IMG/VR virus record: IMGVR_UViG_3300025133_000574
Span: 1-24,519 of that record
Source: a virus
Taxonomy: Duplodnaviria > Caudoviricetes
Strand: one strand, 5' to 3'
DNA length: 24,519 nucleotides
Position numbers and translations under genes: made by a program. Below are positions 4,049-23,697 of the stretch, in pieces. The notes beneath the pieces are model-generated. The model searched no databases, was not told the origin of the DNA, and was given only the letters and a program-made list of their open reading frames with translations. Positions within the stretch are counted from its first letter, which is position 1; the number at the start of each line of letters is the position of its first letter.

Positions 4049-4510
4049 TTATTCAATCAGTTTGCAATTTACTAAAGTATTGTGTTTCATGTGTTCTCTT
4101 ATGTAGTCTACATCATAACTTATGTTTCCTTTTAAGTAGTCAATTCTTTCTTGTTGGCTTTCGTTTGGTAGTATGTAAGTTTTAATATAGTCGTGTAGTT
4201 CTTTGCTATCTTGTTTTATTTCTTGTAGTTTCATAATTTTATATTTATTCTTATTAATTGTTAGAGTTAAAAGAGTGTTAAAATTTAACATTCTATATTT
4301 ATTTATCTTCATATCGTAAACGCATAACAAATTGTATTTGCTCGGCTCAAATGGGCGTGGCTTTGCATTTTCTTTAAGTCCTTTAGTAACTTTAAGGCGA
4401 CCTGTTAAAAGCCTGTGCTGTCCATTCTTCTTGATGAATGTACTACTAAAAATTCTGCCGTTTGTTTCTTCTATTAATTCTTTTGCTCTTTCTGTGTTAA
4501 TTGTTTTCAT
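4049..4510 (-). CDS. WYL_2/SH3(Sm)-like phage protein with a C-terminal extension
   Basis: GRIFS.TF.KK.G..R...GRL ... YDM...YR pattern; family recalled, not searched. Confidence 0.55.
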   Translation of the reverse strand: MKTINTERAKELIEETNGRIFSSTFIKKNGQHRLLTGRLKVTKGLKENAKPRPFEPSKYNLLCVYDMKINKYRMLNFNTLLTLTINKNKYKIMKLQEIKQDSKELHDYIKTYILPNESQQERIDYLKGNISYDVDYIREHMKHNTLVNCKLIE

Positions 4511-4528
4511 GTTTGTTTAATGTTTTGC

Positions 4529-4618
4529 CTAGCATCCACCGAATAGGATTGCTAGAATTAGTAAAAATGTTAATTGAGTATCTGACCAATTTGTCAGAGG
4601 TAATTGTCCTTTGCTCAT
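4529..4618 (-). CDS. Small hydrophobic peptide, 29 aa (MSKGQLPLTNWSDTQLTFLLILAILFGGC)
   Basis: Fills the gap between ORFs; same 20-nt start motif as the gene at 5734. Confidence 0.6.
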   Translation of the reverse strand: MSKGQLPLTNWSDTQLTFLLILAILFGGC

Positions 4619-5487: not shown

Positions 5488-5515
5488 TTTTTTATAGTTT
5501 TAAATTAATAGTTTT

Positions 5516-6077: not shown

Positions 6078-6257
6078 TTAAATTATTGAGTTGTAAAATT
6101 TTAATGCTTCAACTCTTCCCTTCTTGTTTCTTGCAAATTGTTCGTATGTCATCCATCCCCCGCTTAGTTCAATACATACAAGATTGGTTTCTAATTTAAT
6201 AGATTTGATATGCCCCCATTTTTTATTAAATTTTGGCTTTTTATAATTTGTTTTCAT
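6078..6257 (-). CDS. Hypothetical basic early protein (likely start MKTNYKK at 6257)
   Basis: A-rich start context at 6257; the longer annotated start runs into the ribozyme. Confidence 0.6.
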   Translation of the reverse strand: MKTNYKKPKFNKKWGHIKSIKLETNLVCIELSGGWMTYEQFARNKKGRVEALKFYNSII

Positions 6258-6302
6258 TTTGTTTTTTTTAGTTAATTTTGTTTTATTGCGTTTTGTTTCG
6301 CT

Positions 6303-6425
6303 AGTAATAGACAAAGGCAGGAGGCTCTCTCTCTTGAGGCAGTTGGCTAATAAGAGGTTGCAACCTCCTTTTGCTGATTATTCTTTTACCTTTGTTTCGC
6401 CTTTTAAAGGCTCGTCAGTATTACT
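6303..6425 (-). ncRNA. Type I hammerhead ribozyme with a large stem-III insertion
   Basis: Stem I AGUAAUA/UAUUACU; core CUGACGA; stem II GCCUU/AAGGC; GAAA; stem III ACAAAGGUA/UGCCUUUGU; GUC cleavage triplet ending at 6310. Confidence 0.88.
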
Positions 6426-6426
6426 C

Positions 6427-7113: not shown

Positions 7114-7162
7114 TCTGAAAAATCTCAAAAAATTTTTTTATTTTTTTTACCCCACAACCCTA

Positions 7163-7222
7163 GCAGTTTCACAGCAGTTTCAGGGCAGTTTCAGCAGTTT
7201 CAGGGCAGTTTCAGCAGTTTCA
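7163..7222 (+). repeat. Six copies of GCAGTTTCA
   Basis: Copies start at 7163, 7174, 7185, 7194, 7205 and 7214. Confidence 0.95.
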
Positions 7223-9623: not shown

Positions 9624-9719
9624 CTCATTATACTCATCATCCATAAATTCGGTGCAGAAATACGCCTCTAATATACAAACGATTATTACTACTCCCCATA
9701 TTGTTAATATTGTTTTCAT
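9612..9719 (-). CDS. 35-aa single-TM peptide (MKTILTIWGVVIIVCILEAYFCTEFMDDEYNEYGG)
   Basis: Own TAnnTTTG element 4 nt upstream (leaderless arrangement); hydrophobic N-terminus, acidic tail. Confidence 0.65.
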   Translation of the reverse strand: MKTILTIWGVVIIVCILEAYFCTEFMDDEYNEYGG

Positions 9720-9723
9720 GTTG

Positions 9724-9731
9724 CAAATATA
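9724..9731 (-). promoter_or_regulatory. -7 element TATATTTG (leaderless transcript)
   Basis: TAnnTTTG, with TTG 21 nt upstream. Confidence 0.6.
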
Positions 9732-9755: not shown

Positions 9756-10124
9756 TTATCTTAAAAGTTTTGGTTCTGGTCTGTAATGAGGAACTGATTT
9801 TGGGTCATCACCTCTCTCAACTTTTGCTCTTGCATCCCATATTAAATCTCTATGCTTTCTTAACCATCTCATATAGGTTGGAACTGTTAAATGAATAAAG
9901 TCATTAGTTATAGGACTTCTCACTCCAATATTAAAAGCCCTCTCTGCATCTTCAAAATAAAAATTCTTATAAGTCTTAGCCAAGTCATCTGCTAAACTTT
10001 GCGACATAATCATTATTGTATCTTCCTCAACATTATTTTGTCCTAATTCAATATATGTTTTACTTATTAAATCTACAGCACTCATAAGTAAATCTTCTTT
10101 AGTCATTGTTTTTATCTGTTTCAT
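9756..10124 (-). CDS. Replication-associated protein, possibly a helicase loader
   Basis: Directly follows the initiator (ATGA overlap); function inferred from position only. Confidence 0.4.
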   Translation of the reverse strand: MKQIKTMTKEDLLMSAVDLISKTYIELGQNNVEEDTIMIMSQSLADDLAKTYKNFYFEDAERAFNIGVRSPITNDFIHLTVPTYMRWLRKHRDLIWDARAKVERGDDPKSVPHYRPEPKLLR

Positions 10125-10789
10125 TTTTTAAATTGTTTTTTTAATTTTTCTTTTACATTAACATTCTTTTGCAAATGCATATGTATTTTACTCATTCCCT
10201 TATTAGCACTTTTATTTTTTTCTTGTCTTTTCTCCCAAGTTCTAATACACGCTTTCCAATCCTTCATTTTGTTTTTTCCAACCATCCAATCTTTACTTTC
10301 ATAGAAATCAAAAAAAGTTTCTGCATCTATATTATTATCTCTCCAAAAACAATATTCTTTAATCTCTTCAACTTTTGGTTTTTTAAAACGCCCTTTAATA
10401 TTACTATCTGTAAGATTAGTATTAATATGTTTATCTTTAGATAAACTAATATTATCCTTAAAGTTTTCTTTAATACCCCCCTTTAAGTTTTCTTTAATAC
10501 CCCCTTTAAGAATTCTTATATACCTCCTATCAATTTCTTTAGTACCCCCCTTGTAAGTGTAAGATGTTGATATATAGTCATTTGCAACTAATTCGCTTAC
10601 CCACTTAGAAACTGTTACAACACTCTTGTCATAAAGGTTAGAAAAGTATTTATTTGTAGCAAAGCACTCTCCATTAATGTTCAGTAGTGCGGTTATTTCA
10701 GCATACATTAATTTAGCATTTGCAGTTAGGTTTTTATCATACCTAACCTCAGCACTTATTATAGCATAATAATTTGGCTTCTCTTTCAT
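10121..10789 (-). CDS. Phage replication initiator / replisome organiser
   Basis: N-terminal wHTH (AKLMYAEI..L....CFATNKYF), internal iterons, C-terminal FFDFYESKDW.VGKNKMKDWKA domain. Confidence 0.85.
   Translation of the reverse strand: MKEKPNYYAIISAEVRYDKNLTANAKLMYAEITALLNINGECFATNKYFSNLYDKSVVTVSKWVSELVANDYISTSYTYKGGTKEIDRRYIRILKGGIKENLKGGIKENFKDNISLSKDKHINTNLTDSNIKGRFKKPKVEEIKEYCFWRDNNIDAETFFDFYESKDWMVGKNKMKDWKACIRTWEKRQEKNKSANKGMSKIHMHLQKNVNVKEKLKKQFKK
10461..10552. repeat. Iterons (putative replication origin) inside the initiator gene
   Basis: AAGTTTTCTTTAATACCCCC(C)TTT twice with 24-nt period, plus TTTCTTTAGTACCCCCCTT at 10534. Confidence 0.75.
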
Positions 10790-10799
10790 TGTTTTAGTT

Positions 10800-11309
10800 T
10801 TAATTGTGTTTTGGTATTTCTAATTCATAGCACTCTGTATAAGTGGACATAACCACAGTCCACTCACTTACCTCTTTGTGAGTAAACCAACAAAATCTTG
10901 CGTATAAGGCGTTCAATGGCTGTATGAATAAATAGTGCGTAACTTTCTTTTGAGGGTTGTTATGGGCTTTAAAATTGATTCTAAGGGCATTTCCATCACT
11001 TCTTACGCCCTTAACATCAATGTAATGTAATTCACCAATTCCTTGCATAATTAAATCAGCCTCAACAACTGGTCTTTCTTCAAGCAGTAAAGCAGCCTTA
11101 TATTTTATACCTCTATTATTCTCCATAAGGTGTCTTGCAATAAGTTCTGCAAATATTCCTAATTGCTGTATAGAATGTTCTTGATTACCTCTATACTTCT
11201 CTGTGTTTTCATTGTAAATATCAGCAGACAACATACTCCTTACCTTAGCAAGTTCATCAGAAAGTTTGATGAAAGTGCTAGGATAAGTTGTTTTTTTCCA
11301 CTTAATCAT
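10800..11309 (-). CDS. PD-(D/E)XK-like nuclease-fold protein
   Basis: G..AE ... AD ... IDVK motif. Confidence 0.55.
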   Translation of the reverse strand: MIKWKKTTYPSTFIKLSDELAKVRSMLSADIYNENTEKYRGNQEHSIQQLGIFAELIARHLMENNRGIKYKAALLLEERPVVEADLIMQGIGELHYIDVKGVRSDGNALRINFKAHNNPQKKVTHYLFIQPLNALYARFCWFTHKEVSEWTVVMSTYTECYELEIPKHN

Positions 11310-12238: not shown

Positions 12239-12515
12239 CTCTCTTTAGGTATGTTTCTACCTTCCATTTTTCTATCCTGAACTTAGTTTTATTGCCATGA
12301 TAAAAATCTACTAATTGGTTTTTGTTTAAGAGTTGAATAATATTATCTTCAACAATCTCACCTAAAATAATTGGTGGCTCATAAATGCTCTTCTTGTTCC
12401 ACACAATATAAGTGTAAACTTTTAAAAAGTGATTAAAAATCTCTATGTCCAAATACTCCATCTCTGAACATTTTTTCCCATTGTTTTCTAGTGTCTGCTT
12501 CATATCTGTTTTCAT
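12228..12515 (-). CDS. Hypothetical protein (start uncertain, 12515 or 12461)
   Basis: ORF in overlapping operon. Confidence 0.55.
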   Translation of the reverse strand: MKTDMKQTLENNGKKCSEMEYLDIEIFNHFLKVYTYIVWNKKSIYEPPIILGEIVEDNIIQLLNKNQLVDFYHGNKTKFRIEKWKVETYLKRDDK

Positions 12516-13247: not shown

Positions 13248-13259
13248 AATTTTATAGTT

Positions 13260-13340
13260 TTAGTTAGTAATTTTGTCTTGTTGGATAATGTAGATAATCA
13301 TAAGTATTATGATTGTAGGTACTGCGATTAGTGTTTCCAT
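13260..13340 (-). CDS. 26-aa membrane peptide (METLIAVPTIIILMIIYIIQQDKITN)
   Basis: First ORF after the consensus promoter; AAACTAAATG start. Confidence 0.55.
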   Translation of the reverse strand: METLIAVPTIIILMIIYIIQQDKITN

Positions 13341-13370
13341 TTAGTTTATTGTTTTAGTTATTAATTGAGG

Positions 13371-13470: not shown

Positions 13471-14562
13471 TTAGAAATAATGCACTAAACGAGCCACCTG
13501 CCCACTTGTTTTTTCGTGCAAAAATCCTTCAACTGCTTTAGGAATTCCTGTAAATCCTTTTCTTGAGTGCCAACTATCAGTTCCTGATGGACTACGCATA
13601 TACTCTACAGTAACTCCTATAAAGTCTTTTGCATCTCTCCATTTGTGTTTTACTTTGTGATGTAAATGATGTAGATACCAATATCTATATTTAGTTTCAC
13701 TCCACATTTCAGGCTTCTCCTGAGCCATTAAAAGAGGTAAGTTGTCCATCTTAGCACCATCTCCATGCTCTAAGCCAATTAAGTTCTTACCATACTTATA
13801 ATACTTTCTATGTGCTACACTAATATCAAAAGAAATCTCTCTATCATTTCTGAACCAACTCTTTAATGCGTGTGCCAAATGAAATCCACTTTGATAATCG
13901 TGATTACTCATTGAATGTATCACATCAACAGGTGCTATCTCTCTTAACATCTCTACACACTTAACATATAGTGCTAATGCAACTTCAAAATGTTCCCACC
14001 ACTTCCCATCTACATCTTGCCTTGTACCTGCTGTAGTTTGATTATATACATTATCAATATGTAAAACATCATTACCTATACAAAATAATACTCTCTCTAC
14101 TTCAAACCCTTCCGCTTTATACATAAGTCCTTCTAAGCCCTCTAAAACACGCATACAGGCAGTTTCAACATCATACCCATCACCAGTTTCAAGCCCATTA
14201 GCATATTTACCTATATGTATGTCTGCAGGATTTATTATTAATAAATGATTAGCATTTTTATTTTCTCTTTTTACTGAAGGGTAGTAGGGTGAGTGGCTTT
14301 CAATGAAGTCGCTAATCTTATCTAGCATATCATTTTCATTAACAGATATATCTTCTTTAGTTACAATGCTAAACCTGTATTCACCACTAGCAGATTGCCA
14401 ATGTTTAACACTTACAACATCATCCTTATCTATACCTCTCTCTGAAAGATGTATATCTAATGCTGTGTTGCCATTAATGTTTGTTGTGCTTTCTGCTCTG
14501 TTTTCATAAACCATCTCAACTTCTTCTTTGGACAGTCTAAGTCTTTTACCATATTTTTTCAT
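13471..14562 (-). CDS. Calcineurin-like metallophosphoesterase / nuclease
   Basis: DIHIG, GND.LH, SNHD, EHGD and HHLHH motifs. Confidence 0.8.
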   Translation of the reverse strand: MKKYGKRLRLSKEEVEMVYENRAESTTNINGNTALDIHLSERGIDKDDVVSVKHWQSASGEYRFSIVTKEDISVNENDMLDKISDFIESHSPYYPSVKRENKNANHLLIINPADIHIGKYANGLETGDGYDVETACMRVLEGLEGLMYKAEGFEVERVLFCIGNDVLHIDNVYNQTTAGTRQDVDGKWWEHFEVALALYVKCVEMLREIAPVDVIHSMSNHDYQSGFHLAHALKSWFRNDREISFDISVAHRKYYKYGKNLIGLEHGDGAKMDNLPLLMAQEKPEMWSETKYRYWYLHHLHHKVKHKWRDAKDFIGVTVEYMRSPSGTDSWHSRKGFTGIPKAVEGFLHEKTSGQVARLVHYF

Positions 14563-14612
14563 AGTTTTATGTATTGGTTATGATGCAATTATACAAAAAA
14601 AAATACTTATAT

Positions 14613-14695
14613 AAAACAAAAGTGAGATGTTTTTGAACACCCCACTCTTGAAAACTATAAACATGAAAACAAAGATAGGCACAACCCTACCTAAG
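14613..14695 (-). ncRNA. Candidate trans-acting antisense small RNA
   Basis: TATCTTTG at 14708-14701, 5' hairpin, unpaired anti-start-codon linker, 11-bp terminator hairpin with G-U pairs followed by a U-rich tail. Confidence 0.55.
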
Positions 14696-14709
14696 TTATG
14701 CAAAGATAA

Positions 14710-14988
14710 TTATTTTTTACAATTATCAGTACAATTACATTTATTTTTCTCAAATACAGAGAAACATAATGGTAATACCCCTAACCCTGTCAATATCAAC
14801 GCATTAGTATCAATACCATTCTTCTCAATGTATAAACTAGCAGCAATTACTATCACTCCACTAATGGTTCTTTTACTACTCCATTTACCTTTAGTATCTG
14901 TAAAAAGTTCTTTTACTGCCTTCAATAATTCTGTTATTGGTTTTACGCCACCCTTTAGTAACGCTTCCCCTATCCACCTCTTAAACAT
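14710..14988 (-). CDS. Holin-like membrane protein
   Basis: LFTD.KG.WSSKR followed by two TM segments; adjacent to the endolysin cassette. Confidence 0.6.
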   Translation of the reverse strand: MFKRWIGEALLKGGVKPITELLKAVKELFTDTKGKWSSKRTISGVIVIAASLYIEKNGIDTNALILTGLGVLPLCFSVFEKNKCNCTDNCKK

Positions 14989-22649: not shown

Positions 22650-23684
22650 TTAATTATTAAATTTGTTTCTAATTCTTCCTGCTATTGCATTGTAAAAACC
22701 TGCATTAGCATCTTCTGTCTTGTTTTCAACTACTGCAGGGTCGCCTTCAGTTTCAATCTCTGTACCTTTAGCATCTGTTTTGTTGATTTTAGCGTTTAAC
22801 GCTTCAACTTCTCCTGTTAAAGTTTCGTTAGTCCCTTTTGAAGCAACTAATTCTTCCTCTAACAAAGAAATTTTGTTTGATAACTCTATGTTATTAGTTT
22901 CAAATTCAGAAATTTTATTCATAATTTCATCATTATCTCCTAGATTAACTGTTATCGCTGTTTGTTCAGCAACATCTTCAGAAACTTTTACATCACCTTT
23001 TACAGCAGTAACAATTTCTTCAACTTTGTTGTTAAACCATTCTTTTAACTCGTTAGTCATTTTTTTGTTATTTATATTAATACTTAATTTATTCTGTATT
23101 TCTTCCTGTGTGATGTTCTTAAATTTAGAAACATCATACTTTGCAGCCACTTTAATAGAATCAGAGATAGTGTCAATAAAACCATAATTATATGCTTCAT
23201 CAGCATTTAACCAAGTTTCTTCATCCATCATCTCAGCAAGAGCATCATAAGATAATCCTGTCTTTTTCATATAAATGTCTGTAAGTTCGTTTGTGATTTT
23301 ATCAAGAGTATCTGCAGTCTTTCTCATGTCTTTTGACTCACCCATTGTTCCACCCCAAGCGTTATGTATCATAAATAGAGAATTTTCTGCCATTACAACC
23401 TCATCAGCACCTAGAGCAATAATAGTAGCAATACTTGCTGCTATACCCTCAATATAAACTGTAGTTTTTGCCTCTCTCCTTTTGATTACATTATACATTG
23501 CCATACCATCAAACACATCTCCACCTAAACTGTTAATGCGTAAATTGATAGGCATATCTTTTAATCCTTTAATGTCAGTAATAAACTCTTGTGCTGTTAC
23601 ACCATAAGTTCCTATCTCATCAAAGATATAAATGTCGGCAGTTTCATCTGCCTTGTTCTGAATGTTATACCATTTCTCGTTCAT
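22650..23684 (-). CDS. ClpP-like prohead protease fused to a coiled-coil scaffold domain
   Basis: INSLGGDVFDG, GIAASIA (catalytic Ser), FMIHNAW (His) and ETWLNADEA motifs; acidic coiled-coil C-terminus with an internal MTNE start. Confidence 0.9.
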   Translation of the reverse strand: MNEKWYNIQNKADETADIYIFDEIGTYGVTAQEFITDIKGLKDMPINLRINSLGGDVFDGMAMYNVIKRREAKTTVYIEGIAASIATIIALGADEVVMAENSLFMIHNAWGGTMGESKDMRKTADTLDKITNELTDIYMKKTGLSYDALAEMMDEETWLNADEAYNYGFIDTISDSIKVAAKYDVSKFKNITQEEIQNKLSININNKKMTNELKEWFNNKVEEIVTAVKGDVKVSEDVAEQTAITVNLGDNDEIMNKISEFETNNIELSNKISLLEEELVASKGTNETLTGEVEALNAKINKTDAKGTEIETEGDPAVVENKTEDANAGFYNAIAGRIRNKFNN

Positions 23685-23689
23685 AAATG

Positions 23690-23697
23690 CAAAAATA
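23690..23697 (-). promoter_or_regulatory. -7 element TATTTTTG, leaderless late promoter
   Basis: 5 nt upstream of the ATG at 23684; no canonical -33 TTTG. Confidence 0.6.

Follow-up and report, generated by a model that had tools for sequence, protein, structure and literature searches.

A conserved structured unit beside the lysis genes of uncultured marine phages as a candidate antisense sRNA gene for the phages' own early and middle genes

Between the lysis genes and the nuclease gene of an uncultured tailed phage lies a short structured stretch of the minus strand, with an unpaired segment that is complementary to the starts of several other genes of the same phage. What is it for? An initial annotation had proposed a single late small RNA that shuts off a regulon of early genes. 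Of this proposal the complementarity between seed and gene starts held up, while the timing ("late"), a constraint of pairing on MKT N-termini and the full target list did not.

The stretch of DNA analyzed (24,519 nt, hereafter the window) is a 24.5-kb part of a tailed-phage genome with 31% G+C, in which every called gene is on the minus strand. It contains head and other structural genes, an endolysin, two holin-like genes and a 363-aa nuclease (PHROG 704; 13471-14562), followed by a replication and regulation block, small early genes and then the terminase. Genes are called early, middle or late here by their content and position. We infer a Bacteroidota host, because of TAnnTTTG boxes (which we take, from the Bacteroidota literature, to be the -7 promoter consensus of this phylum), the best terminase hit among cultured relatives (Croceibacter phage P2559Y, 45%) and the presence of homologues in Flavobacteriales bins; the capsid had no hit among cultured relatives. 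The phage group is uncultured, marine and widespread, its near-complete relatives measure 31-37 kb, and the nuclease is common to Muminvirus phages.

A conserved structured unit between the lysis genes and the nuclease gene

The unit begins directly 3' of the stop codon of the holin-like 92-aa gene with a -7 promoter box on the minus strand (TATCTTTG, TAnnTTTG type; 14701-14708), followed by a 7-bp 5' hairpin (14673-14692), an unpaired U-rich linker and an intrinsic terminator (14613-14647) made of a 12-bp stem (14647-14636/14631-14620) and a U tract, the first terminator seen after the lysis genes. The predicted sRNA would be ~80-85 nt long (14613-14697, with ends placed by the promoter and the terminator), and its putative seed (14648-14672) has an anti-start-codon half (GUUUUC) and an anti-AACUA half (UAGUU). 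A separate promoter-like box (14586-14593) presumably serves the nuclease gene downstream. The promoter element, the linker and a second TATCTTTG copy (14677-14670) are all present as first described; the hairpin and the terminator are present as well, although the hairpin, given as 6 bp at 14693-14676, folds as 7 bp, and the 11 bp given for the terminator (14646-14621) are the inner part of its stem. The claim that G-U pairs favour the minus strand was borne out, with a minus-strand fold of -29.2 kcal/mol (z=-7.3; 0/200 shuffles as good) in which the linker is predicted to be unpaired, against -10.7 kcal/mol (z=-1.7) for the plus strand.

The first TATCTTTG box matches TAnnTTTG in 31 of 34 distinct clade-A units and the second in just 16. 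A possible -33 region (14727-14734) lies within the 3' end of the holin-like gene and is non-canonical in the window, with TTG at a spacing of 23 nt and CTG at 18. Across relatives, a canonical -33 TTG is found at the unit promoter in 8/41 clade-A and 30/35 clade-B units, at the middle-operon promoter in 46/49 and 27/29 cases, and at the head-protease promoter in none (0/16 and 0/14). The label "late" thus finds no backing in the promoter, which is of the host-sigma type and in these 30 clade-B and 8 clade-A units has the -33 TTG of the middle-operon promoter. Metatranscriptome contigs (from six RNA runs and one run that is probably of DNA) contain the region in divergent versions, and as assembled contigs carry no end, strand or level information.

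We collected 164 loci with the nuclease gene, including the window, and examined 158, dropping 6 with less than 150 nt upstream of the nuclease. The unit was found between the lysis genes and the nuclease in 133 of the 158 (131 by script and 2 by eye), confirming it as a discrete structured element with a conserved place; the script-found units comprise 74 of clade A, 52 of clade B and 5 others, and the unit is kept down to 72% nuclease identity. The 25 loci without it belong mostly to larger phages with a different gene upstream of the nuclease. Two loci, L278 (near 5420) and L202 (near 2369), have a holin-like gene directly before the nuclease and yet no sRNA unit.

When the structure was laid on 36 close relatives, 98% of cells paired and 5 of 19 pairs had changed on both sides, while pairing dropped to 45-67% for slid control structures. 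Conservation is highest in the terminator (99.5% of cells paired, 2 pairs changed on both sides); in the 5' hairpin, 95% of cells paired and 3 of 7 pairs had changed on both sides. The clade-A linker has an identity of 0.85 versus 0.63 at four-fold sites, and the last 27 nt of the clade-B linker 0.55 versus 0.55, so that in clade B the motif blocks alone persist. Clade B has no 5' hairpin and often lacks the CAU triplet, and keeps GUGUUUUC and UAGUU; both seed halves are thus retained across clades. Most relatives have one T (U) more in the seed than the window.

Loci matching our model of the unit (R1) have one strong copy each, with 59-87 bits for most family members. Over 20 records of 50-65-kb phages that share the nuclease, R1 gave 4 weak matches and nothing stronger. 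A host origin of the unit was considered and rejected: in 151 genomes of the order around G002, R1 gave 6 weak matches (35-42 bits), by eye ordinary terminators, and the unit was not found in those genomes. A pattern scan with a 16-nt seed returned mostly unrelated coding matches, and one with the promoter and a FopS-like 5' end returned 73 loci, of which 2 had a terminator call, the random rate (2.7%). With a promoter and a terminator of its own, a conserved structure and no conserved ORF, the unit has the predicted make-up of a trans-encoded base-pairing sRNA.

Complementarity of the seed to early and middle gene starts

All six seed matches listed in the initial annotation are present with the lengths given there: 14 nt at the start of the WYL_2 gene (4501-4514), 13 nt at that of a 35-aa membrane peptide gene (9710-9722), 11 nt each at the start of a 59-aa early gene (6247-6257), in the leader of a 182-aa middle gene (13251-13261) and in the GP88 leader (5491-5501), and 9 nt at 12515, all on the minus strand. 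Elsewhere in the window, perfect matches of at least 11 nt to the 30-nt linker number exactly five, all on the mRNA strand and all at early or middle starts (5/26, versus 0/20 late or packaging starts). Five such matches were reached by 4 of 5000 dinucleotide shuffles, by 10 of 5000 shuffles that retained ATGAAA, and, with host-proxy start regions taken as pseudo-seeds, by 1 of 487, at an 11-nt threshold that was picked after the matches had been seen. The seed thus exceeds its shuffled controls at 11 nt but not at 9 nt, where there are 6 matches (767/5000 shuffles, 50/487 pseudo-seeds) and where the match at 12515 lies within chance. By hybridization energy, most of the window's 25 best sites lie within coding regions, because of G-U pairing.

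As a list of targets, these sites are only partly general. The 14- and 13-nt matches are strain-specific, because the seed of most relatives is one T longer, and the replication initiator gene (10121-10789; PHROG replication initiation), whose start region (10784-10801, minus strand) is the best-conserved predicted target in clade A, had been missed. That rank applies with the longer, one-more-U seed of the relatives: the predicted energy at this start is -14.5 kcal/mol with the window seed and -19.2 with that of L007, and the mean excess is -8.5 kcal/mol (10 of 26 distinct start regions sampled). A further predicted target is the start region (13331-13362, minus strand) of a 26-aa hydrophobic ORF (13260-13340), the first middle-operon gene. 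This ORF and a 29-aa hydrophobic one (4529-4618) are conserved in relatives, have a seed-matching tag in both cases and gave no Pfam hits. The 182-aa gene had been labelled SSAP-like, a label for which we found no Pfam or PHROG hit. The gene starting at 12515 overlaps its neighbour by 83 nt in a different frame (12433-12515); almost all relatives keep the overlap open, clade B does not retain the inner Met, and the start at 12515 is probably real despite the overlap.

The 35-aa peptide gene is the weaker candidate among these targets. Boxes of the -7 type, conserved in relatives, are located 4-5 nt before the ATG of this gene (9719-9731) and of the head protease gene (23684-23697), which suggests that both mRNAs are leaderless, as is probably the case for the 35-aa peptide. 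Since its box lies 4 nt before the ATG, as many as 3 bases of the 13-nt match may precede or coincide with the likely transcription start.

The suggestion that shared MKT N-termini are constrained by pairing found no support, as homologues of the genes at 4510 and 9719 start with MNI, MET, MNT or MKI. ATGAAAAC starts make up 1.4 of the 49 early/middle families, close to the rate in host proxies (6/279 and 2/208), and the conserved tag sits mostly upstream of the ATG; one clade-B family (MTKTQT) retains AAAACAC in its coding start in 17 of the 18 rows shown.

For a comparison across families, each start region (-30 to +18) was set against its own composition-matched shuffles and one value was taken per protein family. 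These tests sampled 4-10 start regions per family, with starts called by script and with 7 ORF families judged spurious and starts without homologue support left out. Early and middle starts paired better than their shuffles by -2.34 kcal/mol in clade A (49 families, p=5.5e-6) and -3.02 kcal/mol in clade B (42 families, p=5e-8), p-values that are optimistic because families and loci are related. Late starts gave +0.33 (31 families, A) and +0.86 kcal/mol (17 families, B), in agreement with the idea that the seed is complementary to the phage's own early and middle start regions and not to late ones. The 18 best families in A and the 20 best in B are every one early or middle, and the contrast with late genes persists for non-coupled genes alone (p=0.0002 and 0.0014).

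Host-proxy starts from two flavobacterial genomes, taken as stand-ins for the phage's own host, gave -0.3 to -0.5 kcal/mol (279 and 208 genes), and starts in the ribosomal-protein region +0.1 / +0.6 kcal/mol (65 genes). The AACTA tag occurs in 34% and 40% of early/middle families versus 9-13% of host-proxy starts. In eight Bacteroidota phages without a detected unit (3 cultured, 5 uncultured) it occurs in 3-17% of non-structural or short genes and in 0-23% of other genes, and the three cultured phages yielded neither a similar unit nor a similar tag; a weak signal appeared in the control phage G181, and in mymlan6-1 with the clade-B seed. Pairing at early starts is therefore not a generic Bacteroidota feature. 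The duplexes, rich in A-U pairs, are of modest strength (-12 to -19 kcal/mol), and equal energies are reached by some sites within coding regions and in host-proxy genes. The unit, its conserved structure and the restriction of the tag to non-structural genes can all be read directly from the sequences.

Seed and tags also differ together between clades. Early starts of clade A carry AAAACTA, TAAACAA and AAACAATG, all within the complement of the clade-A seed, and those of clade B carry ACTAACTA and AAAACAC, both within the complement of the clade-B seed. The frequency of AAAACTA is 0.20 in A versus 0.08 in B, that of ACTAACTA 0.02 versus 0.13, and that of AAAACAC 0.03 versus 0.18. The complement of the own seed contains 5 and 6 of the 25 most enriched early 7-mers (late genes, 0/25), and the AACTA peak of clade A lies at -11, the register predicted by the seed. 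In L050 the seed matches the phage's first middle gene perfectly over 18 nt; in L214 and L222 the corresponding matches measure 11-12 nt. Among families common to both clades, 19 of 27 pair better with the seed of their own clade (mean interaction -2.16, p=0.007), as expected if seed and targets covary in relatives, versus 9 of 14 late families (p=0.58); this co-divergence is one phylogenetic contrast among related sequences. Within clade A by itself this own-seed preference is weak (energy, p=0.27; match length, p=0.056), and in the small sub-groups B2, B3, B4 and D other seeds outscore the own one.

Proposed function of the unit and alternative explanations

With the tag at early starts and missing from structural genes, one small RNA likely dampens many early genes. 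On the sequence evidence at hand we consider it probable that the unit is the gene for a trans-acting antisense sRNA with multiple targets, by which the phage represses its own early/middle regulon. Host RNA polymerase would transcribe an ~80-85-nt RNA from the -7 box, and the seed would be present, too, on late transcripts that end at the unit's terminator. The unpaired seed would cover about -15 to +10 of the target mRNAs, where Bacteroidota ribosomes would need unstructured adenines instead of a Shine-Dalgarno sequence; initiation in Flavobacterium is reported to depend on low structure and on adenines at -3, -6, -12 and -13 (PMC7797042). Repression is favoured because a duplex over this stretch should block initiation, as it does for FopS-10 in vitro; FopS of Bacteroides is described as binding near start codons and blocking translation (PMC11697453). 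Translation of the tagged early and middle mRNAs would then fall, structural and lysis genes without the tag would escape, and the accumulating RNA would serve as a timer, shifting ribosomes from replication and takeover genes to those of the virion.

An alternative explanation is that the unit serves mainly to terminate the late/lysis transcript and shield the nuclease gene, that its promoter yields a short leader RNA (the logic of lambda PR'-tR'), and that its linker is an inverted copy of a start region without regulation in trans. This would fit the place of the terminator after the lysis genes and before the nuclease gene, and its standing as the best-conserved part of the unit, and an 18-nt match such as that of L050 could be a copying event. 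However, it leaves unexplained why the clade-A linker is conserved above neutral sites, why tags occur at early genes alone and vary along with the seed, and why they are absent from phages without the unit; in addition, the nuclease gene pairs weakly at its start and is preceded by a promoter-like box of its own. We regard this explanation as unlikely.

The antisense sRNA could alternatively be aimed mainly at host mRNAs, such as those of TonB-dependent/SusC transporters, or, as a means of superinfection exclusion, at early mRNAs of another, related phage. The seed core resembles the 5' end of FopS, tags are common to relatives, single host-proxy starts reach -19 kcal/mol, and TonB-receptor starts of the two proxy genomes (29 genes) have a small pairing advantage over shuffles when the clade-A seed is used (-1.6, p=0.008). 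With the clade-B seed this effect is absent (-0.8, p=0.35), though, and among the 29 starts AAAACTA occurs in none and ACTAACTA in one; a phage would also not be expected to keep tags for the repressor of a competitor unless self-regulation pays. Such an outside target thus seems quite unlikely as the main one.

Distinctly improbable, in our estimate, is that the AACUA tags are sites of a phage or host protein (a RegA-like repressor or a translation enhancer) and that the U-rich RNA acts on or with this protein rather than by base pairing. T4 RegA represses ~30 mRNAs through A+U-rich unstructured start regions (PMC3014915), and RbpB is reported to bind FopS (PMC11697453); against this, a protein decoy would copy the tag and not its reverse complement, and no RegA-like protein is found among the 47 window proteins. 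A plus-strand gene starting at ATG 14663, with the motif as its true start region, has a 111-codon open frame in the window, but is largely refuted and has next to no probability left, as 22 of 51 distinct linkers lack that ATG and the others give 4 to 137 codons, no plus-strand TAnnTTTG box exists between 13268 and 15429, and the G-U pairs favour the minus strand.

Returning to an antisense sRNA directed at the phage's own early/middle regulon, a broader proposal is that phages tag their early starts, that one sRNA serves as an RNA version of RegA and switches the tagged regulon off, that tag and seed co-evolve per lineage, and that the design recurs in unrelated Bacteroidota phages; we advance this tentatively, with slightly more doubt than belief. 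If confirmed, the unit would give an abundant group of marine phages a translational switch that consists of RNA alone and acts on many targets; pairing would be specific without a Shine-Dalgarno sequence, and targets would bear a tag missing from host and late genes. The early-to-late shift in small lytic phages with host-type promoters alone is poorly known beyond E. coli models. A testable rule follows, namely that the complement of the seed predicts the early regulon, and the unit may offer a compact repressor design for Bacteroidota genetics.

Relation to known RNAs and other elements of these genomes

The closest known systems are FopS (RF04319) and GibS (RF04182) of Bacteroides thetaiotaomicron, described (PMC11697453, PMC7366714) as having, as predicted here, a 65-85-nt RNA with a canonical Bacteroidota promoter, a single-stranded seed with a GUUUUCAU-like core, an intrinsic terminator and predicted pairing around several start codons. 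The phage unit differs in being phage-encoded and single-copy, in the second, anti-AACUA half of its seed (and in clade A the 5' hairpin), and in its predicted targets, which are the phage's own genes and not host transporters. FopS is a multicopy family that represses susC-type host mRNAs and is RbpB-bound; the phage loci that match R1 have one strong copy each, and the TonB signal in the proxy genomes is weak. At Rfam gathering thresholds nothing matched in the window. None of 14 records exceeded the FopS threshold of 56 bits: L244 reached 27.3 bits and the window had no match, and since a match on the reverse strand of L005, in its portal gene region, reaches 24.9 bits, scores of ~25 bits do not discriminate. 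For GibS the score was 14.9 bits (E=7.7) against a threshold of 115; GibS itself has 145 nt and a PM2 promoter, unlike the ~80 nt and the TAnnTTTG-type box of the phage unit. In clade B, GUGUUUUC(AU) lies ~10 nt from the likely 5' end, while in clade A the hairpin comes first; FopS has its seed, with the R1' sequence, at the very 5' end. Convergence on an anti-AUG-AAA sequence is to be expected; the phage unit, which would work like FopS, is not a member of that family.

Among phage RNAs, c4 (P1/P7), sar (P22), OOP and aQ (lambda) likewise repress genes of their own phage by pairing, sar at translation initiation as proposed here, but the reports assign them one target operon each and a role in the lysis-lysogeny decision (PMC8198154, PMC12197685), in contrast to the many short partial targets predicted for the phage unit. 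Neither PF00589 nor PF00239 (integrase/resolvase) matched in any of 20 relative records, 17 of which are at least 90% complete, and no antirepressor was found among the 47 window proteins; given the lack of integrase and resolvase matches in relatives, we prefer a lytic early-to-late hand-over to lysogeny control. T4 RegA and RegB also down-regulate a set of early and middle phage mRNAs at A+U-rich start regions, but are proteins (a repressor and an endoribonuclease), where the predicted agent here is an RNA (PMC3014915). PreS (lambda) and VpdS (VP882) are trans-acting phage sRNAs that likewise favour lytic growth, and differ in being Hfq-dependent, known mainly through host targets and found in Proteobacteria (PMC12197685). 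The parts of this 2025 review covered here present phage sRNAs as single-target antisense RNAs or as host-directed. Our literature search, thin on subscription papers, found no report of a comparable phage sRNA.

Units of partly similar layout were seen in other phages. In an unrelated 48%-GC phage (L411, ~10022, minus strand), a promoter is followed by a FopS-like 5' end, and 15 nt of the unit body perfectly match the start region of a single gene at a distance of 6.9 kb, beside a divergent repressor-like gene. Loci L369, L417, L430, L432 and L460, and also L413 and L450, have a promoter box, a GTGTTTTCAT 5' end and a hairpin, with weak seed matches to their own starts where these were compared.

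Three further elements were noticed in the window. An array of GAAACTGC-type repeats (7162-7222) precedes the early operon promoter, and in the distant relatives L214, L222, L228 and L250 the same motif is located between the sRNA terminator and the nuclease gene. A predicted type-I hammerhead ribozyme (6302-6426, minus strand) lies between two early genes, with a complete core, three stems in the minimum-energy fold and a long stem III insert; it scores 18 bits with Rfam Hammerhead_3, below the cut-off, and by one pattern the window is alone among 25 loci reaching that far. Finally, about four repeats of 23-24 nt (10456-10558) lie inside the replication initiator gene, and presumably resemble the iterons of a lambda-type origin.
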